Positions 3,173 through 61,080 of a stretch of DNA of 64,000 nucleotides are shown here, in pieces. Location: NCBI GenBank assembly GCA_020773975.1, contig GCA_020773975.1_3638.1; one strand, 5' to 3'. The position numbers were made by a program, and so were the translations under genes. Each line of letters begins with the position of its first letter. Position 1 is the first letter of the stretch. This stretch comes from a phage. A model generated the notes under the pieces. That model did no database searches. It was not told the DNA's origin and saw nothing but the letters and a program-made list of their open reading frames with translations.

Positions 3173-3298
3173 TAAAGTGGACACTAAGGAAGGTCGTGGC
3201 TGAGTAAACGGTAAGACACTCTCGACATGTAAAGGTTCCTTCGCCACTTTTCTCAAATAACTATAATAATAATCCAATCAATCTCCTCTCCTATGCCT

Positions 3299-3324
3299 AA
3301 CCCCGCCTCTTGCGGGGTTTTTCT
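3299..3324 (+). terminator. rho-independent terminator
   Basis: CCCCGC-CTCTT-GCGGGG hairpin followed by TTTTT. Confidence 0.6.
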
Positions 3325-3373
3325 TTATGTGCTAGTCTTTACGCATCTTGTTTTGTACTCAAGGATAGCTAAG

Positions 3374-4711
3374 ATGTTGCATGTTTTCAAAAAAGAAGAT
3401 TTTCAAAGAGAGTACGACATTTTGTGCTCTTTTATACCAAAAGGTGTTTATGATTTATTGTCGAAGCTGGATGTTAAGATAGCTGGCGGTGCAATAACCT
3501 CTTTGTTCTCTAATAGTAAAGTCAACGATCTTGATTTGTATTTCCCATCTTGGGAAAGCCTTGAGATATTCATTGCGTACATGATGGATAAAAATCTCTT
3601 AGGTGGAAAGTATGATTTAGCCGCACAGACAAACGGATGGGGAAATCAAAAAAGAACTTTTAGGTATTTTTATAACCTTGATAATGGGCAGGGTTCTCAT
3701 TTAGGTTTCACAGATCCTTTGTCAAGATGTAAAAATCTTCATTTTGAAGATGAAGATCTTCCAAACCTTACCAGAGTTGGTGTAACCGATAAGAGTGTGA
3801 TGCTGTACTTTGGGAAAGACCCTGTATTACAGTGTGTTGCTGTGGATGTGTTCAAAACAACAGAAGATATCTTTAGCAAAGTTGATTTTACAATCAACAT
3901 GGGCGCTTTTAACTTCAAGGATGGTGTGTGGGAATTTGATAGCAATTTCTTAAAACATATTGCTCAAAGGGTTTTAGTTGTAAATCATAAGACTGAATAC
4001 CCGATTATATCACTTTTGAGATCTGAAAAATATAAATCTCGTGGTTATACAATTTCGAAAAAAGAGACAATGAAACTGGCTATGACCATTGCTAGCCTTC
4101 AGATACAAAGTTGGGAATCGGCAAAGTCACATCTTAGCGGGATGTACGGAATGAAACTGTCTGATATCTTTGATGAGACAAAGCCGTTTTCACTTGATTT
4201 TTTGGTTGAGTGTCTAGACAGATTAGAATCTGGTTGCCAGCAGATAGACAAAAATGTTACCCCTGTGCAACCGTTGCCGTTTAATGATGTGTCCCAAGTT
4301 AATATGTTCAGTATTTTCCAAAGATTAAGAAAAGCAACAGGCAGGAAATACTTTACAAAACTATATGGGGTTTGTCCTGCTGAAGTTTTCTATCTTATGA
4401 TGCCAACAAAAGATACACATTATGTTGGGCTTCACAAAGAAGATATAGCAAATAATTTTCCAACTCTCAGACTTTATGTTGATGAAACGGAGGCAAGAGG
4501 AGAGTACAAAATTCTGTGTGAGAACGGAGAGATAGATGGCTATGGGTTTACAATATATCGGCCAGGTGCAGTTCTGTTAAAGGTTTCTGTAAGCGATACG
4601 TCAAAGATCCAATACGATATAGGTTATTTTAATGATTTGTGTATTTCTGAAAACAGAAAAACAACACTGAAAATTGAAAACATTATTGAGTGTGATGGGG
4701 ATATATCATGA
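3374..4711 (+). CDS. putative tRNA nucleotidyltransferase-like (CCA-adding/poly(A) polymerase family) protein
   Basis: ORF trimmed to ATG after AAGGA RBS; head motif KIAGGAITSLF...NDLDLYF aligns with GGAVRD...DxD, and SKVDFTINMGAF aligns with RRDxTINA at matching spacing. Confidence 0.5.
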   Translation: MLHVFKKEDFQREYDILCSFIPKGVYDLLSKLDVKIAGGAITSLFSNSKVNDLDLYFPSWESLEIFIAYMMDKNLLGGKYDLAAQTNGWGNQKRTFRYFYNLDNGQGSHLGFTDPLSRCKNLHFEDEDLPNLTRVGVTDKSVMLYFGKDPVLQCVAVDVFKTTEDIFSKVDFTINMGAFNFKDGVWEFDSNFLKHIAQRVLVVNHKTEYPIISLLRSEKYKSRGYTISKKETMKLAMTIASLQIQSWESAKSHLSGMYGMKLSDIFDETKPFSLDFLVECLDRLESGCQQIDKNVTPVQPLPFNDVSQVNMFSIFQRLRKATGRKYFTKLYGVCPAEVFYLMMPTKDTHYVGLHKEDIANNFPTLRLYVDETEARGEYKILCENGEIDGYGFTIYRPGAVLLKVSVSDTSKIQYDIGYFNDLCISENRKTTLKIENIIECDGDIS

Positions 4712-5109
4712 TATGGTTTAAAACGCTGTTAACTTTCTTTTCTAAGAACATAAAACAGATAGGTGTTGTTTTGTGTTGTGTGATGCTCGTTTGGGGTGTT
4801 GTGGAGATAAAGCATTGGTATAATGACCAGTTAACATCGTCATACAACGCAGGTGTCAGCGACACTGATCTTAAATGGGAGAGGATTAACCAGCAAGTTC
4901 GGGATCATAATAACGCTTTTAAAAAACAACAGCAGGATAAGATCGATGAGTTGTCAACCATGTTGGTGAAAGAGAGAGAAATTAATAACCAACTGAAAGA
5001 AGACCTTGATAAAAAGGTTAAAAGTTATAGCAAAACACAAGCAGGAAAACAGGTTTGCCTAGATAACCAGTTTGTTGATATTTATAACGATAGTCTGGGG
5101 GTGAAATGA
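4708..5109 (+). CDS. putative i-spanin (Rz-like)
   Basis: N-terminal TM helix followed by charged coiled-coil-like periplasmic domain; overlaps next gene start. Confidence 0.5.
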   Translation: MIWFKTLLTFFSKNIKQIGVVLCCVMLVWGVVEIKHWYNDQLTSSYNAGVSDTDLKWERINQQVRDHNNAFKKQQQDKIDELSTMLVKEREINNQLKEDLDKKVKSYSKTQAGKQVCLDNQFVDIYNDSLGVK

Positions 5110-5399
5110 AAAAGTGTGTCATCATGGTTCCTTTTCTATTATTGATGTTAATAGGGTGCACTTCACCACCTGAGAGAGTTGTTCCTGTTGCAAAAGAGAT
5201 CATAATAAGCGATATCTTAGCAAGACCACCCGCTGAGGCTATGATACCACCGAAAGAACCTGAAAAATTGCCAGGTGGTCTTAGTAATGCAGATGCTATC
5301 GAGGTGATTAAGAAAAACAACATTAAGGCTGCTGAAGATCGTATGAGATTAAGAACGTTACAGCAGTATGTGAAGACAATATTTTCTTCAGATAAGTAG
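5106..5399 (+). CDS. putative o-spanin (Rz1-like), proline-rich signal-peptide protein
   Basis: Signal peptide ending LIGC then Pro-rich mature region; immediately follows the i-spanin candidate. Confidence 0.45.
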   Translation: MKKCVIMVPFLLLMLIGCTSPPERVVPVAKEIIISDILARPPAEAMIPPKEPEKLPGGLSNADAIEVIKKNNIKAAEDRMRLRTLQQYVKTIFSSDK

Positions 5400-5407
5400 T
5401 TGACAAT

Positions 5408-5440
5408 GCCCTTATTTAATGATAAGGGCTTTATTTTTAT
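5408..5440 (+). terminator. rho-independent terminator
   Basis: GCCCTTAT...ATAAGGGC hairpin followed by T-run. Confidence 0.55.
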
Positions 5441-5494
5441 CGTTATTCGTGGTAAACTACCTTCTATGGTAGGAATAGAAAATATGGAGGTCTT

Positions 5495-6841
5495 TTGAGT
5501 AAAGTATTTGGACCTGCCAGTCCTAAACAAAAAATGATTTTGGAGAGTAAAGCCCAAATTCTAATAATTGGCGGGGCCGCCGGGTGTTTGTCTAAAGACC
5601 ACGAGGTGTTGACACCATCTGGCTGGATTAAGATATCAGAATGGTCAGGGCAGGACATTCTGCAATATGATAAAGCCACTGGGGAGGCTAAATTTATCCC
5701 TCCTTTAGAGTTTGTTAAACTCCCTTGCGACAAACTTACAAGAATAGAAGGTAATGGCATTTGTCAAGAGCTATCTGACGAACATACTGTGATTTATAAA
5801 CCAGACTATAAATCACAGCCAAGAACACTTTCTTTTTCTGAAGTGGCAGAAAGACATAACAACTCTGTTAAAAAAGGTTGGACAGGTAAGTTCATAACTA
5901 CATTTAACTATGATGGGCCTGGGATAGACATGACAGAAGGGGAATTAAGGCTTCAGGTTGCTGTCATGGCTGATGGGAGAGTTGTTAAAGAAGGGAAAGA
6001 TAATTATACACAGATGCGCTTTGCTAAAAAGCGTAAATATGACCGCTTAATCGAACTTTGTAAAAAGTTTGGATTAAGATATGAAGACAGAGGATCAAAA
6101 CCCAGTGAAAGATATACCACTGGGGAACAGTACGAGGTCATTGTATGGCCTAAATATCCTGATAAAAAATTTACAGAGAAATACTATCAGTGTTCAAATG
6201 AACAACTGGAGATAATACTTGATGAGATTTTTCATTGGGATGGTTCTTTTTGTAAGCCATATGGCGGTAAAACACATAACAGCTTTACAGGTAGATATTT
6301 TACTGCTCATAAGACGAACGCTGATTTTATTCAGTTTGTAGGATCTTCTCTTGGTTATAATACCACCATAAGCCATGACACAAGAAGTGGAAAGGACAGT
6401 TATACTGTTAATATTATGGCTAGAGGAAAAGGATTAAGGTCACTGGCTAATAAAGACAGAAAAGCTGAGTTTAAAGCGTTTACACCTACGGATGGGTTTA
6501 AATACTGCTTTGTAACACAAACAGGTTTCTTTGTTACCAGACTGGAAGATTGTGTGGTTGTCACTGGGAATAGTGGAAAATCATATCTCCTACAATTGAT
6601 GCCGCTTGCTTATGTCGATGACCCGCAGACAGCATGTATAATGTTTCGTAGGACAACACCTCAATTGACAGGTGCAGGTGGACTTTTTGATACAGCGAAA
6701 AGTATTTATTTGCAACTCGATAAGGAATGGAAGCCGAAGTTCAGGGAGAAAGCTCTGGAAGCAATTTTCCCATCTGGGGCAAAGGTGTTGTGGAGACACA
6801 TGGAGTATGAGAATAACAAATTAGATCATCAGGGTGAATAG
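5495..6841 (+). CDS. terL: terminase large subunit, N-terminal coding segment (P-loop ATPase) containing an in-frame intein
   Basis: TTG start after GGAGG RBS; Walker A split as IIGGAAG-[intein]-SGKSY; lies directly upstream of portal; ORF runs to a stop inside intron-like sequence, real exon end probably 6817-6829. Confidence 0.7.
   Translation: MSKVFGPASPKQKMILESKAQILIIGGAAGCLSKDHEVLTPSGWIKISEWSGQDILQYDKATGEAKFIPPLEFVKLPCDKLTRIEGNGICQELSDEHTVIYKPDYKSQPRTLSFSEVAERHNNSVKKGWTGKFITTFNYDGPGIDMTEGELRLQVAVMADGRVVKEGKDNYTQMRFAKKRKYDRLIELCKKFGLRYEDRGSKPSERYTTGEQYEVIVWPKYPDKKFTEKYYQCSNEQLEIILDEIFHWDGSFCKPYGGKTHNSFTGRYFTAHKTNADFIQFVGSSLGYNTTISHDTRSGKDSYTVNIMARGKGLRSLANKDRKAEFKAFTPTDGFKYCFVTQTGFFVTRLEDCVVVTGNSGKSYLLQLMPLAYVDDPQTACIMFRRTTPQLTGAGGLFDTAKSIYLQLDKEWKPKFREKALEAIFPSGAKVLWRHMEYENNKLDHQGE
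5585..6571 (+). mobile_element. intein (329 aa) with LAGLIDADG-type endonuclease motifs in the terminase P-loop
   Basis: Starts with Cys (CLSKDHEVLTPSGW), ends VVVTGN followed by Ser; internal LQVAVMADG and LDEIFHWDG motifs; removal restores GGAAGSGKS. Confidence 0.7.
6809..6817 (+). repeat. 9-bp direct repeat GAGAATAAC (copy 1) flanking the terminase intervening region
   Basis: Identical 9-mer at 8778-8786; joining the copies puts exon 1 and the C-terminal segment in frame (MEYENN-PDYLAF). Confidence 0.5.
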
Positions 6842-34655: not shown

Positions 34656-35240
34656 ATGAACAAAATATTTGGACCATTTTTCCCTTATTCTCCACTTCCT
34701 GATAATGCAACAGGAGCTACGAAAAGATTGTTGGAAGCTAACCCTTTCGCCCCTTTTTTCTATGAAGAATCTACGGGGAAAGACTATTATGAAATAGCCG
34801 AAGAATTGAAATCCCAAACAGAGCCGGGGAAATATGCTTTTCTTTCGCTGGATCTCGACGATAGGGTTTGCTGCGTTTGCTATGAAGGTTTTGATGGGTG
34901 CACTCCTTTCAGCGGCTGGAAAATAGCGGTTGTTCCGGTAGAAAATTTGCCTAAAGGCATTGAGTATGACCTCGGTGACGTGGCATTAAAAGATGGCAAA
35001 TTTGTTTATACCTATTTCCGATCTATACAAGAGGCAAAACTTCACAAGGATAAGGAAATTGCATGGGCAAGTCAATATATTCAGACATATGAAGACTATG
35101 AGCAGGTAACAGGTAAAAAACTACCAGAGCACATGGCAGATATTCTTAAGAAATTAAAGATTTATCGTTGTGAGGTATTAAGCATTAAAACTGAGGATGC
35201 TCCTAACATAACATGGGCTATAAGACCGTCAGTTGAGTAA
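34656..35240 (+). CDS. putative tail fibre assembly chaperone (194 aa)
   Basis: Position directly downstream of a fibre gene; C-terminal APNITWAIRP resembles Tfa-family ends. Confidence 0.35.
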   Translation: MNKIFGPFFPYSPLPDNATGATKRLLEANPFAPFFYEESTGKDYYEIAEELKSQTEPGKYAFLSLDLDDRVCCVCYEGFDGCTPFSGWKIAVVPVENLPKGIEYDLGDVALKDGKFVYTYFRSIQEAKLHKDKEIAWASQYIQTYEDYEQVTGKKLPEHMADILKKLKIYRCEVLSIKTEDAPNITWAIRPSVE

Positions 35241-35252
35241 AGGAGCTAAGGA

Positions 35253-35567
35253 ATGTCTATTGACCTATTTGCTATCTTAAAAGCCGTATGGGGCGTATTG
35301 ACGTTTTTCTTAGTTGGTGTTCTGAAGCTAACATACTCAGACTATAAAAAGACACAACAACGTCTTGATGAACTTGATAGGGACATCATAAGAATTAAGG
35401 CAGAAATGGTCACTAAAGAAAAACTTGATGAGATTCTTGATAAAAAACTGAAAGCTGTCCGCGATGATGTTTCAGATTTTAGAAAAGACTTAAAAGAGGA
35501 TGTAAGCAGTTTGAGAGTTGATCTTATAGACCGGCTTAAAATTCTTATAGAGAGCCAAATGAAATGA
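35253..35567 (+). CDS. small membrane protein, N-terminal TM plus coiled coil (104 aa)
   Basis: Hydrophobic N-terminus LFAILKAVWGVLTFFLVGVL followed by charged helical region. Confidence 0.4.
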   Translation: MSIDLFAILKAVWGVLTFFLVGVLKLTYSDYKKTQQRLDELDRDIIRIKAEMVTKEKLDEILDKKLKAVRDDVSDFRKDLKEDVSSLRVDLIDRLKILIESQMK

Positions 35568-36040
35568 TAAGTTCTGCACTGTACTTTATATGCTTTGCAG
35601 TGCTACTTCTTGATAATGATAAAGGTATCCGAACCATGTCAGTACTTGGCATGGTTCATATCCTGATAGAGAATATATTGTACTGGTGGTTCAGTTCCCA
35701 TATCTACGCATTTGATTTATCACTCTACCTAACTTTTTGTTGGTTTTTGGATATATCTCTGATTTTCTTTACTGCATGTGTTTTGACAGGATGGAGAAAA
35801 AAGCTAATGCTTGCACTATCTCTACCTGTTTTGTTTTGCCAAATTTTAATTATGCAGTTCCCATTTATTTTACCGAACGCATTAGGCTTCACGATAAATT
35901 CATCATATCCAACATTTATGGAAGTTCTTTTATTATGCGCTGCATACAAAACAGGTACAATAAAAGAATTGTTTAAAACTTCTGTTGTTGTTGTTGGTTT
36001 CATAATTATAGCCAGAATTGTTCCTGGAGTAAATTATTGA
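35564..36040 (+). CDS. polytopic membrane protein (158 aa)
   Basis: At least four hydrophobic helices; overlapping start with upstream gene. Confidence 0.4.
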   Translation: MISSALYFICFAVLLLDNDKGIRTMSVLGMVHILIENILYWWFSSHIYAFDLSLYLTFCWFLDISLIFFTACVLTGWRKKLMLALSLPVLFCQILIMQFPFILPNALGFTINSSYPTFMEVLLLCAAYKTGTIKELFKTSVVVVGFIIIARIVPGVNY

Positions 36041-36055
36041 GGATTCTAATGTATT

Positions 36056-36319
36056 ATGATAAAATCAATATTGAAATTTTTAAAAGATCTTGTCAGATCC
36101 CCAGTAAATCCAGAGAAAGCCTCCCACACAAAATTTTGGAGCAATATCGGATTAGCTGCAATGACAGCAGTTTTTTTGGATTGGGGTTTCAAAGGCACAT
36201 TAACGGAGTGGTATATGTGGGTGTATGCCCCCACAGTAGCTGCCCCGCAGTTAATAAGTAAGTTAATATCTCTACGCTGGGGTGTAGAAGCACAACGTAG
36301 GGAAGAGTCAGACCAATAA
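36056..36319 (+). CDS. small membrane protein (87 aa)
   Basis: Central hydrophobic segment IGLAAMTAVFLDWGF; ORF track. Confidence 0.35.
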   Translation: MIKSILKFLKDLVRSPVNPEKASHTKFWSNIGLAAMTAVFLDWGFKGTLTEWYMWVYAPTVAAPQLISKLISLRWGVEAQRREESDQ

Positions 36320-36329
36320 GGAGATTCTT

Positions 36330-38081
36330 GTGGCGGACATGACTAAATTTGAACAGGCGGTAGATCAGGTTGTAGAAGATTCTGAACGCCTTCATAAAGT
36401 TGTCAATGGGGCAGCTACTGAAACTGTAGTTACAGAGGATGGCAGTCTGATACCTACAGTCAGAAAAGCATTTCTTGACAATTTATTCTTTAAAACACCT
36501 CCACTGCCGTGGGTTGCTGGACAACAGACGACGGTATTTAATCAGTTGTATGCCTATACAGGGGAAAGAGGTGTCCAATGGTGGTATGCACCCGGTGCGA
36601 CAGAGAGTTCGCCTGTAACACTACCTCCTAATCCAGTCAATAATGTTAACTGGAGATTATACAACGATTCAGAATCTATTTCTCAGGTATTTGCGCCTAT
36701 TGACAGCCCTATTTTTACAGGGAACCCTCAAGCACCAACACCATCAGCGGATAGTAACAGTACAACTCTGGCAACAACACAATTCGTTACTAGAGCTATT
36801 GCTACTGCTTTGGCTGGAATTGCGGGTGGCAACGGTACATTCGCGGATCTTACTGTAACAGGTTTAGCGAGTCTTAATACGCTTTCTGTTGGCGGTGTGT
36901 CAACATTTAATGGGCCTGTTAATGCTGAAAATCAAACAGGAAAATTCCAGAATCTTATCTTAACAAAAGATAATTCAAGTCTATCTTTTGCCTACAGTGA
37001 TGATTCTAACCCGACGTTTATGAAAACAAGGCTTGAAGCATACTCAGCGCAGACACATCAGTTACATACAGACATCATCATAAACGGTGTGCCAGTAGCA
37101 GACAATACAACAATGTCTTTCACAGGTCTTGGTAATAATACCTTCGACTATGTTTACATTACAGGTAACTCTAAAAAAGACCCTTCTGAAGCTCGTCTTA
37201 AAGTTTCTGGGATAACAGAACTTGAAAACTTAAAGATTACAGGTACTGTAACAGGACTTTCTTTTTCTGTCAATGGGGAAGATATCTCGCCTAATTCTGT
37301 AACAACGGCACAAGGGATTACTGTAGGTGGTGATTTACAAGTCAATGGTAACACCAATCTCAACAGTACAACATGTGAGAGCTTAGAAGTTACTAACAAC
37401 CTTGTTGTTAATGGACAAGCCAGTCTCAAAGATTTCTCCTCTACAACTGGTAATGTCACAGAGCTATTAACTTTAGGGGAGGGATTCACTGCGACTGGTG
37501 ACGGGTATGTAGGTGGTGATCTAACTGTCAACGGAACTTCAACCCTTGGTAAGATAATATCTGATGGCGATGTGACTTTAAATAGATCTTCTGGCACAAC
37601 AACAGTAAACAACCTGATTGTTAAGGGGACTGTATCTGGTATTACGGTTGATTTGACAGGACAAAACGTAAACGTAGCATCTCTTTCTGCTCAAAGCAGT
37701 GTAACGACAGATCAGTTATTTGTTAACGGCCAGACACAACTTTCTTCCACCAATGTAAGTTTCCTAACTTTACAATCGGAAGAAGTTGACGATCCGACAG
37801 CAACATGGGCACCAAGCGGCACATCCAACATTTATAATGTCACAGTAAATAAAAATCTGACAATCGGAGCATGGCCTGATCCACAGCAACCTTTCTCCGC
37901 TATGATTTATCTGACGCAGGATGCCACAGGTGGGCACAGTGTGACTCTGGATCCTAATTATGTTGTCCTTAACAGTGAAACTGTTAATACAACAGCAAAT
38001 TCAGTCACCATCCTTCAATTAACCTTTAATGGTGTTGAAGGTGGGGTTATCGACACTGTTATTGTCCGTAGACCACAATAA
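36330..38081 (+). CDS. tail fibre protein (583 aa)
   Basis: GTG start; conserved fibre motif SPIFTGNPQAPTPSADSNSTTLATTQFV; long Thr/Gly/Asn/Val-rich repeats. Confidence 0.6.
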   Translation: MADMTKFEQAVDQVVEDSERLHKVVNGAATETVVTEDGSLIPTVRKAFLDNLFFKTPPLPWVAGQQTTVFNQLYAYTGERGVQWWYAPGATESSPVTLPPNPVNNVNWRLYNDSESISQVFAPIDSPIFTGNPQAPTPSADSNSTTLATTQFVTRAIATALAGIAGGNGTFADLTVTGLASLNTLSVGGVSTFNGPVNAENQTGKFQNLILTKDNSSLSFAYSDDSNPTFMKTRLEAYSAQTHQLHTDIIINGVPVADNTTMSFTGLGNNTFDYVYITGNSKKDPSEARLKVSGITELENLKITGTVTGLSFSVNGEDISPNSVTTAQGITVGGDLQVNGNTNLNSTTCESLEVTNNLVVNGQASLKDFSSTTGNVTELLTLGEGFTATGDGYVGGDLTVNGTSTLGKIISDGDVTLNRSSGTTTVNNLIVKGTVSGITVDLTGQNVNVASLSAQSSVTTDQLFVNGQTQLSSTNVSFLTLQSEEVDDPTATWAPSGTSNIYNVTVNKNLTIGAWPDPQQPFSAMIYLTQDATGGHSVTLDPNYVVLNSETVNTTANSVTILQLTFNGVEGGVIDTVIVRRPQ

Positions 38082-40550: not shown

Positions 40551-40742
40551 TCAAGATGATTTTTTGTCTTTTTCTTGGAGAAAAGACAGGACAAATGCTG
40601 TAACCGCTATAATCAAAGGGGGCATGACAACAATTGCCCATGGTAGGTATAGAGGGGCAAGAACTAACCACCAAGACCAGTCTATAATCTCACACAACTT
40701 CAACGCTATGAAGAGAATGCTTAACGCAGATAAAAATCTCAT
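40551..40742 (-). CDS. small membrane protein (63 aa)
   Basis: ORF track; two hydrophobic helices. Confidence 0.3.
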   Translation of the reverse strand: MRFLSALSILFIALKLCEIIDWSWWLVLAPLYLPWAIVVMPPLIIAVTAFVLSFLQEKDKKSS

Positions 40743-40749
40743 AAAAACC

Positions 40750-41031
40750 TCAAGAGAAAAACTCTTCTATAACTTCCCAAACCCTTTCCGAACCCCCTCC
40801 TGAAAGGATACTCCAAATAACCATATCTTGATAGCCTTTCTTACACACATCCACTTGTCGAAATGCTTTGTGGAAACCCTCTGGACAACCATATTCCACA
40901 GGGAGCATATCCACATTATCTTCGAAATATTTAAGTAGCAATTCCTCTTCCAAAGAGGGGTTGTTGCGAAGTTTCTCTTTGAGATTCTCAACAAGTTGTG
41001 CACCTGTTAACTTTTTGTTTGTCATGTCCAA
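40750..41031 (-). CDS. hypothetical protein (93 aa)
   Basis: ORF track. Confidence 0.3.
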   Translation of the reverse strand: MDMTNKKLTGAQLVENLKEKLRNNPSLEEELLLKYFEDNVDMLPVEYGCPEGFHKAFRQVDVCKKGYQDMVIWSILSGGGSERVWEVIEEFFS

Positions 41032-41378
41032 TCTCCATTTTTAATTTCCAGTATATCTACGCTCTCTGTTGGTACAAAGCCAACAACAGGCTTCATACAT
41101 TTCTCTTTTACATTATCGAAGACATACATTTCATCCAATGCTTTTTGTGTTGTGCACGATTCCCAGTTTTTTGTGTACTCTTTGTAGCCATCCTCGTAAA
41201 GGAGGAAGTAGTTAATAGTTGTTGCCCCAAGAATAACGAACATAACAAAAGAGACAACAACGTGTTTCCATGTTCCTTTATACGATAAAATGAAAGCCCA
41301 AATAGAACACAACACATAAAACGATAAAGCAGGGAACCAGTTATTATGCACCTGTACCCACTCTAAAAAAGACATCAT
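41022..41378 (-). CDS. membrane protein (118 aa)
   Basis: ORF track; hydrophobic helices. Confidence 0.3.
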   Translation of the reverse strand: MMSFLEWVQVHNNWFPALSFYVLCSIWAFILSYKGTWKHVVVSFVMFVILGATTINYFLLYEDGYKEYTKNWESCTTQKALDEMYVFDNVKEKCMKPVVGFVPTESVDILEIKNGDWT

Positions 41379-42432: not shown

Positions 42433-43068
42433 TTAAAATCTTCCACACACCCACCCTTCACAGTTGTGATCACGACATCCTTCAAAATCATATGGGCTGT
42501 ACTGCCAGGTTATTTTTCCGCAGTGCGGACAATTCCAGCGCACTTTCCCGCTTCGTGACCTCTTCCTTCTGTTCTGCTTTTTCAACCAATCAGGCATGAC
42601 CAAACCTGCGCCCTGAACCATTGTTCTGCGGTTAAAGTTATTGATATTGAACGTCCGGCGCTTTGCTGCATCAGCAATGGAAAATGGCAACCAAACTATT
42701 CCTGGTTCGTTTTTGTTGGCGACGCTAAAGATGGTCGCTTTACTGAAGTCATCTGTTGGCAATCCACCGTGTTGAAGCCAGTAAACATCGTTGCCGTTCC
42801 AGCTACCTTTTTTGTAGGCCACATACGCAGTGCAATCTGACTCAATCAGGCTTTCTGTAGGGATGTACTGGCAATCAACGTGCCACACAGCCATTGCATC
42901 CACACTATCAGCGCAAACAGGTTGATCGATATCTCGACCACAATTCCAGGCTTTTTGGGCTTCTTCCAGCGTGTAAACATGAGCGCGATCGATATCATAA
43001 CTGTAACCATTGCCGTTATGGCAATGGAATGAGGCGTTATTACCCACAGTTTCACGCAAGCACATCAT
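42433..43068 (-). CDS. hypothetical protein with C-terminal CxxC zinc ribbon (GC-rich island)
   Basis: ORF track 42433..43119 trimmed to internal Met; C-terminal WNCPHCGKITW...CEGWVCGRF; enterobacterial-like composition. Confidence 0.35.
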   Translation of the reverse strand: MMCLRETVGNNASFHCHNGNGYSYDIDRAHVYTLEEAQKAWNCGRDIDQPVCADSVDAMAVWHVDCQYIPTESLIESDCTAYVAYKKGSWNGNDVYWLQHGGLPTDDFSKATIFSVANKNEPGIVWLPFSIADAAKRRTFNINNFNRRTMVQGAGLVMPDWLKKQNRRKRSRSGKVRWNCPHCGKITWQYSPYDFEGCRDHNCEGWVCGRF

Positions 43069-56212: not shown

Positions 56213-57517
56213 CTACTTACCAGGGAAAGTCTCTTCATAAAACTTAACAAGACGTTGATCAACGATAATATCTTTATCCCTGATCCTACGTAATAACCTT
56301 AATCCTTTTGCACTTGTTGCTCTGCTAAAAGCCACGTATGCCATGCCTGGTGCAAAAGTCCCATTGCCAAAGTCAACATTAACTTCCGGTAATGTTAATC
56401 CTTGTGCTTTGTGTATTGTAACAGCCCACCCAAGACGAATCGGCAAAGCCCTGTACTCACCAATGATAATCTTCTCAATTTCTTCAGTTATTGTACCATC
56501 TGGGTTTTTCACCTTTATGGGGTTATACTCAACATTTTCCCACACATAAGGTTCTACGTCAACAATATCACCATTCTCAAGGCGGACTTTAACACTGTAT
56601 TTACGTAGTTCAACAATCTCCCCACGGGAACCATTCACATAACTTGGTTCATCCAGACCTCTGGGGTCATTGACAGTAATCATCACCTGCGCCCCCTCTT
56701 TCAGATATAACTCTTCAGGTACAGGTGTCTGGTTAAATTGCCCTGTCTTTTTTGCCTTGTAAACTGTTGGGATTCCAGGTATTGCATCAAAACGTTTTTT
56801 GTTTATTTTGTCTGCTGCCGCGTTTGTTGAGGTTATTGTTATAGCATCCAAGGGTTTTCCCATGTTGTAGCAATAAGTATTCATAAACTCAACAATCTCT
56901 GGAATACGCTCTCCCTTGCGAAGGCAATTAAGAAGTGTTGAAAAATGAACACTACTTTGCCTGTATATTTTATCAAGAAATACAGGATATGGGTTCAATT
57001 CTTTCCATGTTTTAGAAAAGCAACAAAGTTCTGTGTCGTGGAACTGGTAGTAGATCTCTTTTTCTTCACCTTTCAAAACAGGTGGATTCTGTAAGAAATC
57101 CCCGAACATGCACACCTGCAAACCACCGAAAGGCTCTTTAGGTTTTTTACGTGCCAGACGACATTTCATGTCCATTTCCCAAAGTTTGTCTGCCCTGAAC
57201 ATACTTATCTCTTCAATAATAAGAATCTTCAGTGCTTTACTTTTAAGCAACTTCTTAGCCTTTGCCTTTATCTCTTCTGCATCTTTTTTAGTGGACACGC
57301 CTAATGAAAGTCCGAAAGCTCTGTGTGCCGTCATACCATCCACATTAATGGCAGCAGCCCCTGTAGGGGCCACTGTCAAGACTGAACCTGCGTATAAGGA
57401 TTGGATAGTTTTTATGGTATGGCTCTTTCCAGCACCTGCATAACCACTGATAAACACATTTTCACCGGACATTATAGCGCCAAGAGCTTCTTCAACGCCA
57501 ACCCCGTATTGAGACAT
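56213..57517 (-). CDS. SF1B DNA helicase (Dda/RecD-like)
   Basis: Walker A GYAGAGKSH, GDFLQNPPV, C-terminal AVTIHKAQGLT and YVAFSRA motifs. Confidence 0.65.
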   Translation of the reverse strand: MSQYGVGVEEALGAIMSGENVFISGYAGAGKSHTIKTIQSLYAGSVLTVAPTGAAAINVDGMTAHRAFGLSLGVSTKKDAEEIKAKAKKLLKSKALKILIIEEISMFRADKLWEMDMKCRLARKKPKEPFGGLQVCMFGDFLQNPPVLKGEEKEIYYQFHDTELCCFSKTWKELNPYPVFLDKIYRQSSVHFSTLLNCLRKGERIPEIVEFMNTYCYNMGKPLDAITITSTNAAADKINKKRFDAIPGIPTVYKAKKTGQFNQTPVPEELYLKEGAQVMITVNDPRGLDEPSYVNGSRGEIVELRKYSVKVRLENGDIVDVEPYVWENVEYNPIKVKNPDGTITEEIEKIIIGEYRALPIRLGWAVTIHKAQGLTLPEVNVDFGNGTFAPGMAYVAFSRATSAKGLRLLRRIRDKDIIVDQRLVKFYEETFPGK

Positions 57518-58530
57518 CAGTCCTCCTTAGATTCTTGTAGATAAATCTCTTCAAGAATTTTACCCTGTACACCAATGACAATAATATCTGGTGCACCTGC
57601 TGGTTTTGGTGTTCCTGTCAGAACTTCATAACGACAGCAACGGCATTTTTTCTGGTTATAGTCATAAGGGACACTGACAATATCTGCCGGATCCACAGAT
57701 ACTTCTACAAGTGCCCTTGAAGTCTTCTCAAAGGTAGCGGCATAGTCAATAGATGCAACATGCAAACCTTGGCTACATGTTCTATTGGGATTATCCTCAA
57801 CCATATTACGTGGCATGGAAATCACTTGCCCTTTATAATTAGGAACTTTACCTGTATGACAATCTCGTGGGCCATCTACAGTTATCTTAATTTTCTTGTA
57901 TGCCTTAATATTTCCGTTTTCAAGGATCTCAAGATCATTATGTTTTACAAAATCATAAAGCATTTTAACAGAAGCATACGACGGGTTGTGTAGCAACTTC
58001 TGCATGAATTTGACATATCGTTCGTCAAAGCAATCATTCTCAATATCTTTAATGATTCGTTTAGCAATACTGCTTTCCTGTTTTTGACCGTGCCAATATA
58101 AAACGTTATCTATCAATACTAAATTATCACCAAAATCAATGGTCTTTTTCTTTTCTGCTTCTTTCTCTTCCAAAATACGTTGTACAGCAGCATCTATTCC
58201 TCCTGTCCAAAGGATAACACCAACTTCTTTGAAGATGGGGCTGCTACTATTTAGAGTATATTGTTCACCATTTAACAAAGTGATATGGATATTGTCTTGG
58301 GTAACAAGGACAATTGGTTGTGCAAGAGTATGCACTGGCTTCATAATACCTACAGGATCTTCCTTAGCCTTTTTGGTTGTCGGCATTCCTTTTTTGGGTG
58401 CAACTGTCCAGCGTTTAAGAACATTTAGACCACGATCAACAACCACCATATTATTTTTCTTAGCGTATTCACGAGCTTCACGACGTGACATGAATAAAGG
58501 ATTACTCACCTTTTTCTCCTTTGCTGTCAA
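57517..58530 (-). CDS. putative rIIB-like protein
   Basis: Assigned by adjacency to and co-orientation with the rIIA-like gene, and size (337 aa); no independent motif. Confidence 0.35.
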   Translation of the reverse strand: MTAKEKKVSNPLFMSRREAREYAKKNNMVVVDRGLNVLKRWTVAPKKGMPTTKKAKEDPVGIMKPVHTLAQPIVLVTQDNIHITLLNGEQYTLNSSSPIFKEVGVILWTGGIDAAVQRILEEKEAEKKKTIDFGDNLVLIDNVLYWHGQKQESSIAKRIIKDIENDCFDERYVKFMQKLLHNPSYASVKMLYDFVKHNDLEILENGNIKAYKKIKITVDGPRDCHTGKVPNYKGQVISMPRNMVEDNPNRTCSQGLHVASIDYAATFEKTSRALVEVSVDPADIVSVPYDYNQKKCRCCRYEVLTGTPKPAGAPDIIVIGVQGKILEEIYLQESKED

Positions 58531-60514
58531 TAAATTTACGATACTCTAGCATCTCTGGAGTATTGAAATGCCTAATATTAATGTATTTTAACAATGGGTA
58601 ACGATCTTTCTTAATCTGTAGTAGCTTTTTCCCAATTCTCTTCTTGGCCTCTATCATCCTTAATGCTTTCTCACGACTATCTTCGTAGCCAGGAACTGAC
58701 CAATAACTGGGTATGTTTACCTTCATCTCCCATTTTGGGAAACTAGCTACCATCACACCAAAATAGCTAAGCTCTTTAACAATGTTATGATACTCATGAT
58801 CTTTCCCCACTTCTTGATATAAATGATATTCAAGAAGGTTAGTTTTTGCAAGAGCATGAATATCCTCCTCAGTTATAACCCGTGCCTCATCTGGCAGCCA
58901 ACTTGATCTGTTTAAAGGCACAATATATAACTTACCAGCTACACCAAGATTCTTAAGAAATGTTGGTGGTTGCTTTCTCCAAGATGTTCTAAGATTTGTT
59001 CTAAGATTGGAAACGTATCCTAACGGGCATAATCCTTTCACCTGCCCACCCCAGTAGACCATAGCCGCCTCAATATCTTCAAACTGAGCACGGGAAATGC
59101 GGGTTACATCTACGGAGCCATCTTGGTTGATTATCCAAACTTTATGACCCGGTTCGTAATAACCATAGCCACCATACTTTTTATCTGCTTTTTGCACTGG
59201 TCGTTTTTCAAGTTCAGATAACTTGAAAATCATCCCTTCAAAGAATTTATCACTGTATAAGGACAGAGCGTAATCAGCATCGGTTATAAATGATCTCTTA
59301 CCAAACTTCTCTGCGAGCCAGTTACATTTAGAGCGCACATACTTGTGATCATCATTGTAAACCAGTGGATGACCATTCATCAACTCTGCGTATGAATATC
59401 TCTCATCCTTACCACGGCGTGATCCTTCGCCACCATATGTTTCACAGTAATCTATGTAAGAACCATCAGTATAATTCTTGAACTTATTTGCAATAAAAGC
59501 AGCACCGTACTTTGTAGCGAAGTACCCGCCAATAAACTTCATATGATCAAGAACTGCTTTTAACGTTGGCAGATCGCTTAATTCTTTTGTGATTTCTTCT
59601 CCGCGAAGTCGGATAGCTTTCGTCACAAAACTTTCAAGTTTATCACGAAATCCCCCGTCATTCTTTCCTTCTACTGTCCACTCCCTGCCAGGATCTACAT
59701 TACAATCCCCAATAGGGATAGATACCGTCATCATAGGCAGTTCTTTGCGAGTAGAGAGATAATCAGAGAGATATGGTTGTTGCCCCATGATGACAACACT
59801 ATCAGCGTTTCTTGAAATGCTACTATACATCTCAAGAACCCAGCCAGTCTCCTCATCCTCATACCGATACTGAACAGGATAAGTGCGATCTTCAATCTGA
59901 GTTTTAACAAAAGGATCGTTAATAATATATGGGAATTTGGCATAACGAAGGCATTTTACAATAGCCTGTCGATAAGCTCCTGTTTCCCAAGTGTTTACGT
60001 TAAATTTAACCTCTACACCATTCTCCTCTGTTGTTTCACAACAGAATAAAGGTACAACCTCTGGTATTCCGCTGTTTTTGTGAACAGAGTATGTTGTTTT
60101 CACTCCATCTTTAACAGAAACAACTGTGAACATATCTGTTACTGCAAGAGGCGCTTTTGACCCAATACCTTTCGCGCCAATCAGATCATTACTGTTTCTT
60201 TTTGTGGACTTACCAATCATCATGAATGTACGTGTTACCATCTCATGATCCATACCTAACCCTGTATCCTTAACAGAATACCAAGGTTCCAAGTCTGTTG
60301 GTGAGTGGATGATGATGGGTTTATCAGAACACCCTGCCTCTGTATGAGCATCTACAGCGTTGAAGAGAGGCTCTCGTACTGCTGCCAAAGGTTTATCTTT
60401 ATAAATTCCATCGATAAGAATACTGAAAGTCTCAGGATTCATTGCAATTGATGCTTGGTATCTTTCTACGTTCCCAGTTACCTGAACTTTGTTGTCAGAT
60501 CTTTGAATAATCAT
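58502..60514 (-). CDS. rIIA-like protein with N-terminal GHKL-type ATPase motifs
   Basis: N box LFNAVDAHTEAG, G1 box VKDTGLGM, G2 GAKGIGSKAPLAV; 670 aa. Confidence 0.55.
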   Translation of the reverse strand: MIIQRSDNKVQVTGNVERYQASIAMNPETFSILIDGIYKDKPLAAVREPLFNAVDAHTEAGCSDKPIIIHSPTDLEPWYSVKDTGLGMDHEMVTRTFMMIGKSTKRNSNDLIGAKGIGSKAPLAVTDMFTVVSVKDGVKTTYSVHKNSGIPEVVPLFCCETTEENGVEVKFNVNTWETGAYRQAIVKCLRYAKFPYIINDPFVKTQIEDRTYPVQYRYEDEETGWVLEMYSSISRNADSVVIMGQQPYLSDYLSTRKELPMMTVSIPIGDCNVDPGREWTVEGKNDGGFRDKLESFVTKAIRLRGEEITKELSDLPTLKAVLDHMKFIGGYFATKYGAAFIANKFKNYTDGSYIDYCETYGGEGSRRGKDERYSYAELMNGHPLVYNDDHKYVRSKCNWLAEKFGKRSFITDADYALSLYSDKFFEGMIFKLSELEKRPVQKADKKYGGYGYYEPGHKVWIINQDGSVDVTRISRAQFEDIEAAMVYWGGQVKGLCPLGYVSNLRTNLRTSWRKQPPTFLKNLGVAGKLYIVPLNRSSWLPDEARVITEEDIHALAKTNLLEYHLYQEVGKDHEYHNIVKELSYFGVMVASFPKWEMKVNIPSYWSVPGYEDSREKALRMIEAKKRIGKKLLQIKKDRYPLLKYINIRHFNTPEMLEYRKFIDSKGEKGE

Positions 60515-60534: not shown

Positions 60535-61080
60535 TTATGCGTCAGGATGCTTGTAAAAAATATGATTCCCAACCTTCACTGTTTTCACCATGACTTTTGC
60601 CCAAGATGGCCTAACAGTAGTTGCATGATAGTACGTTGCTGATTTTGTGTAGTCAAGAGCCTTGTATAAACTTTTGTGGTCTTTATGCAATCTCATCAAG
60701 ATTTTAGCATAAAATTTAGCTCTTAACCACCTATCCTTTTCATAGACTTTAAAGGATTGCCCACCGAATGTCCAAGAGAATTGCCCCGGCTGGTAAACTA
60801 CTTTCTTGATAGTATGCGGGAAATTCTTGTCATCTTTTCTATTCAATGTGACAAAAGCGACACCCATCATTCCATAATCACCTTCTCCTCTTCCCTCTTT
60901 ATACAAGTTACAGGCAAGAATATTAAGCTCTGTATCATTCTTCTTGCAAATGTGAAGAACTTGGGGCTTCTTTGCACTTTCTTTGGCTAGAACAGGGGTA
61001 ATAGACAGAGAAAGTGCACAGCAAACTGCAAATAATAAAGATCTTATTTTCAAAACTAACTCCAGACAAATAAGCCCCAT
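60535..61080 (-). CDS. cell-wall hydrolase (SleB/CwlJ-like) with N-terminal signal-anchor; candidate endolysin
   Basis: ORF track 60535..61155 trimmed to internal Met (MGLICLELVL...); catalytic region ILACNLYKEGRGEGDYGMMGVAFVTLNR...VVYQPGQFSW. Confidence 0.55.
   Translation of the reverse strand: MGLICLELVLKIRSLLFAVCCALSLSITPVLAKESAKKPQVLHICKKNDTELNILACNLYKEGRGEGDYGMMGVAFVTLNRKDDKNFPHTIKKVVYQPGQFSWTFGGQSFKVYEKDRWLRAKFYAKILMRLHKDHKSLYKALDYTKSATYYHATTVRPSWAKVMVKTVKVGNHIFYKHPDA

Follow-up and report, generated by a model that had tools for sequence, protein, structure and literature searches.

A candidate holin-type lysis-control module among the tail-fibre genes of an rV5-like phage

What do three small membrane-protein genes do when they are lodged between a tail-fibre chaperone gene and a tail-fibre gene? 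The question is raised by a 64,000-nucleotide stretch of phage DNA (GenBank assembly GCA_020773975.1, contig GCA_020773975.1_3638.1; the whole stretch is called the window here, and positions refer to it) from an rV5-like myophage of the Vequintavirinae, Avunavirus-like, whose nearest relatives, in the genus Avunavirus, are Av-05 (96%) and, at 93% over the region, the Escherichia phages 18-1-2 and TH18. An earlier sequence-only reading had placed three co-oriented, tightly packed open reading frames (ORFs), here called A, B and C, between the chaperone and the fibre gene, and our ORF calls agree with that layout:

34656-35240, plus strand: tail-fibre assembly chaperone (Tfa), matching Caudo_TAP (PF02413, 8.9e-5) and phrog_136 (4.8e-16)
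35253-35567, plus strand: gene A, 104 residues, matching phrog_5345 (2.6e-45)
35564-36040, plus strand: gene B, 158 residues, matching phrog_7451 (4.1e-71)
36056-36319, plus strand: gene C, 87 residues, matching phrog_1322 (1.5e-30, with residues 4-86 of 87 covered)
36330-38081, plus strand: tail-fibre gene with a GTG start, matching phrog_4549 (2.4e-221)

C sits in a long plus-strand structural operon, in which neighbouring genes overlap or are separated by gaps of 10-15 nucleotides: 12 nucleotides lie between the chaperone stop and the start of A, the stop of A overlaps the ATG of B (ATGA), a GAGGA stands 12 nucleotides 5' of the C start, and 10 nucleotides separate the end of C from the GTG of the fibre gene. 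A scan for promoters and terminators inside the operon found nothing above background and no convincing internal signal. We take A, B and C to be real genes because each matches a PHROG family over its full length and is conserved: A occurs in 222 phage records, B in 107 and C in 375. None of the three received a functional name from Pfam, NCBIfam or PHROG scans; the Av-05 annotation lists the trio as two hypothetical proteins and one membrane protein, and that of PVP-SE1 lists gp44, gp43 and gp42 as membrane proteins with one, four and one transmembrane domains (TMDs).

We give an even chance to the reading that A, B and C form a holin-type lysis-control module that is housed with the late tail-fibre genes and separated from the endolysin and spanin genes. 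That C by itself is a lysis protein seems to us somewhat more probable than that, and its sequence relatives make C a good candidate for the rV5-like holin.

Those relatives were gathered with a profile of close C homologues, which, searched against 1.84 billion representatives, retrieved 90 proteins at E ≤ 1e-3, all of 53-158 residues save one repetitive match of 521 residues. Common to them are two helices, a motif SHTKxW(S/A)N before the first helix and SKxLSL(R/K)YG after the second, with a tail that is hydrophilic; in some, an N-terminal TMD is added as a third. All 84 of the relatives that were scanned matched phrog_1322, and 4 of these 84, all remote, also matched Pfam DUF2644 (PF10841; best 2e-4). 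The window C and 23 close relatives gave no DUF2644 match at E ≤ 1, and no NCBIfam match was found among the C relatives. Aligned as families (hhalign), the window-type subfamily and a proteobacterial, Mu-like subfamily matched with a probability of 99.6% (E 3.8e-24, 77 columns), a homology that spans the whole length of the protein. Public sources label some of these relatives DUF2644, and neither Pfam nor PHROG gives a function for the family.

We gathered 133 C-family loci from bacterial genomes and IMG/VR contigs (numbered with an L below) and extracted their flanking ORFs. Directly 5' of the C-family gene, some 64-72 of 103 distinct neighbours are peptidoglycan hydrolases, spanning at least seven Pfam families and five enzyme types (VanY 20, GH108 16, with PG_binding_3 in 15, Amidase_2 10, CHAP 9, Peptidase_M15_3 5, Amidase_3 4, Phage_lysozyme 3, Peptidase_M15_2 3 and GH19 2); directly 3' of it, 43 of 84 neighbours match phrog_1403 'Rz-like spanin', and many others match further spanin PHROGs. 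Holins are classically recognised in genomes by such a setting, as small two-TMD proteins between interchangeable endolysins and a spanin, and the C-family genes take the position of a holin. No other nearby small same-strand ORF with at least two transmembrane segments was found in 87 of 105 loci. An N-terminal hydrophobic segment is missing from 80 of the 86 upstream neighbours of at least 110 residues; since most of the adjoining endolysins thus have no signal or signal-arrest-release (SAR) segment, they should need a hole-forming holin. In Mu-like elements the C-family gene stands in the late lysis cassette, as in L007, L008 and Pseudomonas phage Bise (Mor, VanY-type endolysin, C-family gene, a 165-168-residue protein, further genes, small terminase) and in L010 (Phage_lysozyme, C-family gene, further genes, TraR, DUF2730, Mu gp27). 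In outline, Bise, L007 and L010 have the order Mor, endolysin, C-family gene, spanin, further genes, small terminase. Within 2.5 kb downstream of the C-family gene, 60 of 107 loci hold a coiled-coil protein with one N-terminal TMD (one of them a DUF2730 member), so that a pairing of the A-C type recurs. The Mu genome itself holds no C-family gene, its TMD proteins being gp19, gp20, gp23 and gp25; this fits, because Mu has been reported as holin-less (PMC9239132).

Several loci depart from this arrangement. In L015, L088 and L089, an extra two-TMD ORF of 56-65 residues (motif ADPEGRG) lies 130-260 nucleotides 5' of the C-family gene, after the endolysin, and may be a second holin or antiholin component. 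On the metagenomic contig of L006, a 109-residue coiled-coil protein (111-440) whose TMD is C-terminal rather than N-terminal overlaps the start of the C-family gene, and the ORF 3' of that gene has an N-terminal TMD and an odd, strong GDH_ACT1 match. One C-family gene (L041, CAYGWT010000331.1) is on a contig binned as a Bathyarchaeia archaeon metagenome-assembled genome, which is probably a misbinned phage or proteobacterial contig. Variants with three TMDs (158-167 residues) occur in L011 (5001-5477) and on IMG/VR contigs of about 120 kb (L111-L130); that of L011 is a lone gene on the other strand, flanked by the DNA polymerase gene and by the dUTPase, regA and clamp-loader genes of a T4-like replication module. 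No endolysin or spanin was found among the extracted neighbours of these variants (by Pfam for L011, by ORF size only for the others). The notion that those of the T4-like contigs occupy the T4 imm position was set aside, since their strand is the opposite one and their place is between the DNA polymerase gene and genes of the regA side.

C itself has what is typical of a holin: it is a small protein of inner-membrane type with helices at residues 24-46 and 52-75 and a charged, hydrophilic C-terminus, although its hydrophobicity is weak. AlphaFold2 models it as an amphipathic helix (2-13), the two long helices and a disordered charged tail, at low confidence (predicted local distance difference test, pLDDT, of 64), and because of that low confidence the model was kept out of fold searching. 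The tail, EAQRREESDQ, is both acidic and basic, and together with the basic N-terminal region it suggests an N-in/C-in topology.

A is built quite differently. Residues 1-27 form a strongly hydrophobic N-terminal segment (Kyte-Doolittle hydropathy, KD19, maximum 2.2; TMD at about 4-27), followed by a helical, coiled-coil-like tail of 77 residues, 49% of them K, R, D or E (19 basic, 19 acidic), which bears out its earlier description as a single-pass transmembrane and coiled-coil protein. An alignment of 25 family members has a short acidic N-terminus (D4 in A), a basic cluster after the TMD (the alignment's invariant YKK, at 31-33 in A; KWK in rV5, KQK in phi92 gp149) and invariant T54, K55 and L58; because of the acidic N-terminus and the basic cluster, the positive-inside rule, on its own, predicts an N-out/C-in topology. 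All 222 records that carry A are Vequintavirinae, and in all of them A lies directly 3' of the Tfa gene; phi92 gp149 is a weak counterpart in position and architecture. On these features A is a candidate lysis partner of the kind represented by LysF1b or the releasins. BLASTP of A against Mu gp25 found nothing, and the NCBI label 'DUF2746' on one 78%-identical A homologue was not reproduced. A role for A as an i-spanin (Rz) was rejected on the N-out/C-in charge pattern, the absence of a spanin PHROG match and the presence of the phage's own Rz/Rz1 pair at 4708-5399.

In B, three hydrophobic stretches are strong and two more are weaker, and AlphaFold2 gives it six helices (pLDDT 72, predicted template modelling score, pTM, 0.69); fold searches with B returned generic helical bundles only, and BLASTP against Mu gp19, a four-TMD protein, found nothing. 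B was rightly read earlier as polytopic, but the count of four helices given then was either too low or a matter of threshold, with six in the AlphaFold2 model and four TMDs in the PVP-SE1 annotation. Its homologues (P0167-P0194) all carry a precomputed match to Pfam PF26221. We regard B as a polytopic inner-membrane protein of four to six helices, possibly an accessory or antiholin-like component. It is absent from rV5-type phages and phi92; in Vequintavirus proper, the slot between A and C is filled by a 347-residue paralogue of the short tail fibre (4940-5983 in Murica, L005; gp30 in rV5), so that a membrane-protein gene and a fibre gene are interchangeable at this place.

Across the phages searched with tblastn, the 375 records with C cover Avunavirus, Seunavirus, Mydovirus, Certrevirus, Vequintavirus, phi92-like phages, Phapecoctavirus and some Aeromonas phages. 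In rV5-type phages the genes run fibre, Tfa, A, fibre paralogue, C, fibre; phi92 has its C (gp144) flanked by the endosialidase and the wedge gene, and there the A-like gp149 follows Tfa four genes away. A and C are thus core genes fixed beside fibre genes, and B is optional.

The other parts of a lysis system lie elsewhere in the window, at a distance from the trio as the sequence-only reading had said of the spanins and the hydrolase:

4708-5109, plus strand: i-spanin, matching phrog_4297 'Rz-like spanin' (1.8e-47), with an N-terminal TMD
5106-5399, plus strand: o-spanin, matching phrog_1267 'Rz-like spanin' (1.2e-21), with the lipoprotein-type signal LIGC
57517-58530, minus strand: counterpart of Av-05 rIIB, by position and size only
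58502-60514, minus strand: rIIA-like lysis-inhibition gene, 98% identical to Av-05 'RIIA lysis inhibitor'
60535-61080 (longest ORF to 61155), minus strand: endolysin-family hydrolase, matching phrog_938 'endolysin' (1.8e-26)

The hydrolase gene, 96% identical to the Av-05 'endolysin' Av05_00150, has rIIA directly downstream of it and, next after that, the gene that corresponds by position to Av-05 rIIB. The Av-05 orthologue starts at M26, 25 codons inside the longest ORF, which corresponds to 60535-61080; the N-terminus (MGLICLELVLKIRSLLFAVCCALSLSITPVLA, then KE) is hydrophobic and looks signal- or SAR-like. In Av-05, outside the part that corresponds to the window, there are also an RI-like 'lysis inhibition' gene (phrog_1246), a lysozyme-like protein and a second hydrolase, the last flanked by the membrane proteins Av05_0064 and Av05_0066. 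The spanin pair of the window sits in the terminase region between two large ORFs (3293-4711 and 5495-6841); the large terminase gene of relatives is interrupted by introns and homing endonucleases, with the spanins beside it (PMC3606486, PMC7344957). The holin has gone unidentified in the rV5-like phages LL12 (PMC6658697) and KPP-1 (PMC9862379), and guesses at it, all unproven, have been made for rV5 gp129 (PMC3606486), CB7_82 (PMC7344957) and KP12 peg.280 and peg.320 (PMC9902359). Within the window, a two-TMD ORF of 63 residues (40551-40742, minus strand) was considered as a rival holin and rejected, because its family is scattered and never annotated as holin and because it lies on the strand opposite to the structural operon. 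That family is spread over Rheinheimera, Gordonia, Vibrio and Staphylococcus phages, and its RefSeq name in Av-05 is 'transmembrane Fragile-X-F protein'; more small two-TMD ORFs occur among the small minus-strand genes (42846-43055 and 41022-41378, both minus).

How such a module would work we infer, at every functional step, from gene structure, conservation, the homology of C to the lysis-cassette family and the predicted topologies. C would be made late, alongside the fibres, enter the inner membrane in the form of a helical hairpin (N-in/C-in) and build up there harmlessly; at a set time it would trigger, and the resulting lesions would collapse the membrane potential and let the endolysin reach the wall, or activate it, after which the spanins at 4708-5399 would disrupt the outer membrane. 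A, tethered by its N-terminal TMD with its charged helical domain in the cytoplasm, would act as a co-holin or regulator of C, as LysF1b does with LysF1a in mycobacteriophages; alternatively, it could serve the signal-bearing hydrolase at 60535-61080 as a releasin, in the way of Mu gp25. B would be a lineage-specific accessory membrane protein, possibly an antiholin. The proposal of a holin/antiholin set, made before these comparisons, gains real if indirect ground as to a role in lysis, through the homology of C to the cassette family, the architecture of A and the reports of an unidentified holin in rV5-like phages; these comparisons do not sort the three genes into holin and antiholin, and B has no informative relative.

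A number of observations weigh against a lysis module. Here C lies 24-30 kb away from the other lysis genes (the spanins 30 kb upstream, the endolysin-family gene 24 kb downstream), and because of that distance the argument, comparative throughout, borrows its guilt-by-association from relatives at 30-40% identity. The hydropathy of C is weak (KD19 maximum 1.2), TMHMM and Phobius found no TMD in rV5 gp29, and all members of the C family are named 'hypothetical' or 'membrane protein'. For A and its relatives, hmmscan against Pfam returned coiled-coil noise only; DUF2746 (PF10874) was matched by none of the 25 A-family members among the 25 families listed at E ≤ 10, and the A family reached a probability of 15.6% against Tweety gp33, of the LysF1b type, in hhalign. 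DUF2730 (PF10805) gave no A match, with 1.5% in hhalign against Mu gp25; the A alignment scored 83.5% (E 8e-6) against the family in the gp25 position, only across 40 coiled-coil columns, and 40.7% against a DUF2730-seeded alignment, scores that are suggestive at most. A also lies 25 kb from the endolysin-family gene, not within five genes downstream of one, although that gene does have a hydrophobic N-terminal segment, so that the two may still act as a pair. B is dispensable in whole genera. A and C hold a strict synteny with fibre genes even where they are apart, as in phi92, from which a fibre-related role could follow. Finally, other small membrane proteins, encoded beside hydrolases, have been proposed as holins (CB7_82, PMC7344957; KP12 peg.280 and peg.320, PMC9902359).

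The last of these points leads to the explanation that best survives beside a holin role, although we still think it unlikely: the C family would be a lysis accessory (an antiholin, a regulator or a spanin-associated factor), and the true holin would be another small membrane protein, for example one beside a hydrolase elsewhere in the genome. Besides the CB7 and KP12 proposals, the two membrane proteins that flank the second hydrolase of Av-05 are of this kind, three Mu-like loci have an additional two-TMD ORF between endolysin and C-family gene, and in F1 mycobacteriophages the two-TMD protein LysF1a is insufficient alone and needs a one-TMD partner (PMC13056207). Across the group, however, it is C that is conserved and not these alternative candidates; the C-family protein is also the sole nearby small protein with at least two transmembrane segments in the 87 cassettes (of 105) counted above, and the endolysins that adjoin it, nearly all without an N-terminal hydrophobic segment, need a holin.

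Somewhat less probable, in our estimate, is that the trio serves tail-fibre or baseplate biogenesis, as scaffolds or chaperones with a membrane anchor that would keep fibres at the inner membrane or mature them there. Such a role would explain the fixed places beside Tfa and fibre genes: in Avunavirus, Seunavirus, Vequintavirus and phi92, A without exception comes after Tfa and C before a fibre or wedge gene, even when four genes separate them, the B slot of rV5-type phages is filled by a fibre paralogue, and one record calls a C homologue a 'structural protein'. Yet T4 gene t keeps its synteny with fibre genes without having a fibre function, and the Mu-like C-family genes lie in a lysis cassette near Mor and terminase genes rather than among tail genes. 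The trio's counterparts are also absent from the virion proteomes of CB7 and rV5: mass spectrometry of the CB7 virion (26 proteins) detected CB7_31, CB7_36 and CB7_37 and neither Tfa (CB7_32) nor the three genes before the fibre gene CB7_36 (CB7_33-35, equated with A, B and C by position only), and rV5 gp29 and gp31 have no mass-spectrometric evidence in the virion. The phi92 proteins gp144 and gp149 are not named in the 2026 phi92 structure paper. These virion data are consistent with non-structural roles for the trio.

The remaining explanation, that the trio are inner-membrane proteins of superinfection exclusion or DNA entry (in the manner of T4 Imm and Sp, T5 Llp or Cor) placed beside receptor-binding genes through a common entry pathway, we consider very unlikely: exclusion genes do often stand among fibre genes elsewhere (T5 llp, T1/phi80 cor, lambda lom), B is lineage-variable and moron-like, and the category of phrog_1322 in PHROGs is 'moron, auxiliary metabolic gene and host takeover', but A, B and C have no exclusion-family match in Pfam, PHROGs or NCBIfam, C is core in at least 375 genomes with differing hosts and receptors (and A is likewise conserved in its 222 records), the context of the C family elsewhere is endolysin and spanin, and the operon is a late structural one, whereas exclusion proteins are usually needed early. 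The superinfection-immunity option of the sequence-only reading accordingly found no positive support, there being no match of T4 Imm type and C being a core gene in two subfamilies rather than a variable moron.

Returning to the lysis module, a wider generalization can be put forward tentatively, with less confidence than the module itself: phrog_1322/DUF2644 may be a widespread, unannotated holin family of phages of Gram-negative hosts, the missing holin of the Vequintavirinae and Stephanstirmvirinae (that is, rV5, PVP-SE1 and phi92), acting as one of two components with an N-out/C-in single-TMD coiled-coil partner, which would be A here and gp25-like proteins in Mu-like phages. If a holin role for C is confirmed, it would name a family whose members, in hundreds of phages and in prophages of Neisseria, Moraxella, Pseudomonas and Burkholderiales, are now called 'hypothetical protein', and would add a case for single-TMD N-out/C-in proteins as general lysis components; if the two-component arrangement also holds, the LysF1a/LysF1b principle, so far found mainly in phages of Gram-positive hosts, would extend to Gram-negative hosts, and releasins and one-TMD holins would be linked as one functional class. 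Few coliphages are isolated as often as those like rV5, PVP-SE1 and phi92, which also go into cocktails for therapy and biocontrol. A concrete holin candidate with a defined partner makes their lysis timing testable and engineerable and answers a gap raised in several genome papers, although, holin families being many, the finding is of an ordinary kind. Should the holin role fail, the strict synteny of A and C with fibre genes would suggest that fibre biogenesis or entry includes a membrane step not so far recognised.

Among known systems, the layout has a precedent in T4, whose holin gene t directly follows fibre gene 38. As proposed for the trio, a lysis-timing membrane protein is there encoded with late tail-fibre genes, at the end of their operon and at a distance from endolysin and spanin genes, and rIIA/rIIB are found in this phage group too, as is, in Av-05, an RI-like gene (phrog_1246). 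T4 T differs in form, having 218 residues, one TMD and a large periplasmic domain, whereas C is an 87-residue two-helix hairpin with no sequence similarity to it and the soluble domain of A is predicted to be cytoplasmic. In form C is closer to the class II holins and pinholins such as phage 21 S68, being small and two-helical, with a predicted N-in/C-in topology, a charged C-terminal tail and one weakly hydrophobic helix; no homology to the S68 type was detected, C has no dual-start motif, and, since the endolysins beside C-family genes mostly have no signal or SAR segment, large holes would be expected rather than pinholes.

For A, whose architecture recurs in two lysis proteins studied by experiment, the Mu releasin gp25 (DUF2730; 99 residues in the Mu record) offers one comparison, being an N-out/C-in protein with a cytoplasmic domain that is needed to release a SAR endolysin (PMC9239132). 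A differs in its want of a DUF2730 match and in its distance from the endolysin gene, but the two are alike in size (about 100 residues), N-terminal TMD, helical cytoplasmic domain and a basic pair at the membrane junction; in Mu-like cassettes, proteins like gp25 are found together with C-family genes, and the hydrolase of this phage, with its hydrophobic N-terminus, could need release.

One parallel to the trio as a whole is the LysF1a/LysF1b pair. The F1 phages differ in that here the host is Gram-negative and the genes lie outside a lysis cassette, and hhalign of the C family against Tweety gp32 (LysF1a) gave 1.7%, no support for homology. LysF1b proteins (DUF2746) have 92-150 residues, an N-out/C-in topology, basic residues after the TMD and a helical tail that is 30-50% charged, and there is genetic evidence of their holin function, exerted with the 88-residue, two-TMD, N-in/C-in LysF1a; in 30% of Mycobacterium smegmatis phages the neighbouring partner of LysF1b is a four-TMD protein (PMC13056207). 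A has these architectural traits (104 residues, TMD at 4-27, YKK, 49% charged, with the topology by the positive-inside rule only), and A (one TMD), B (four to six) and C (two) together repeat, side by side, this set of architectures.

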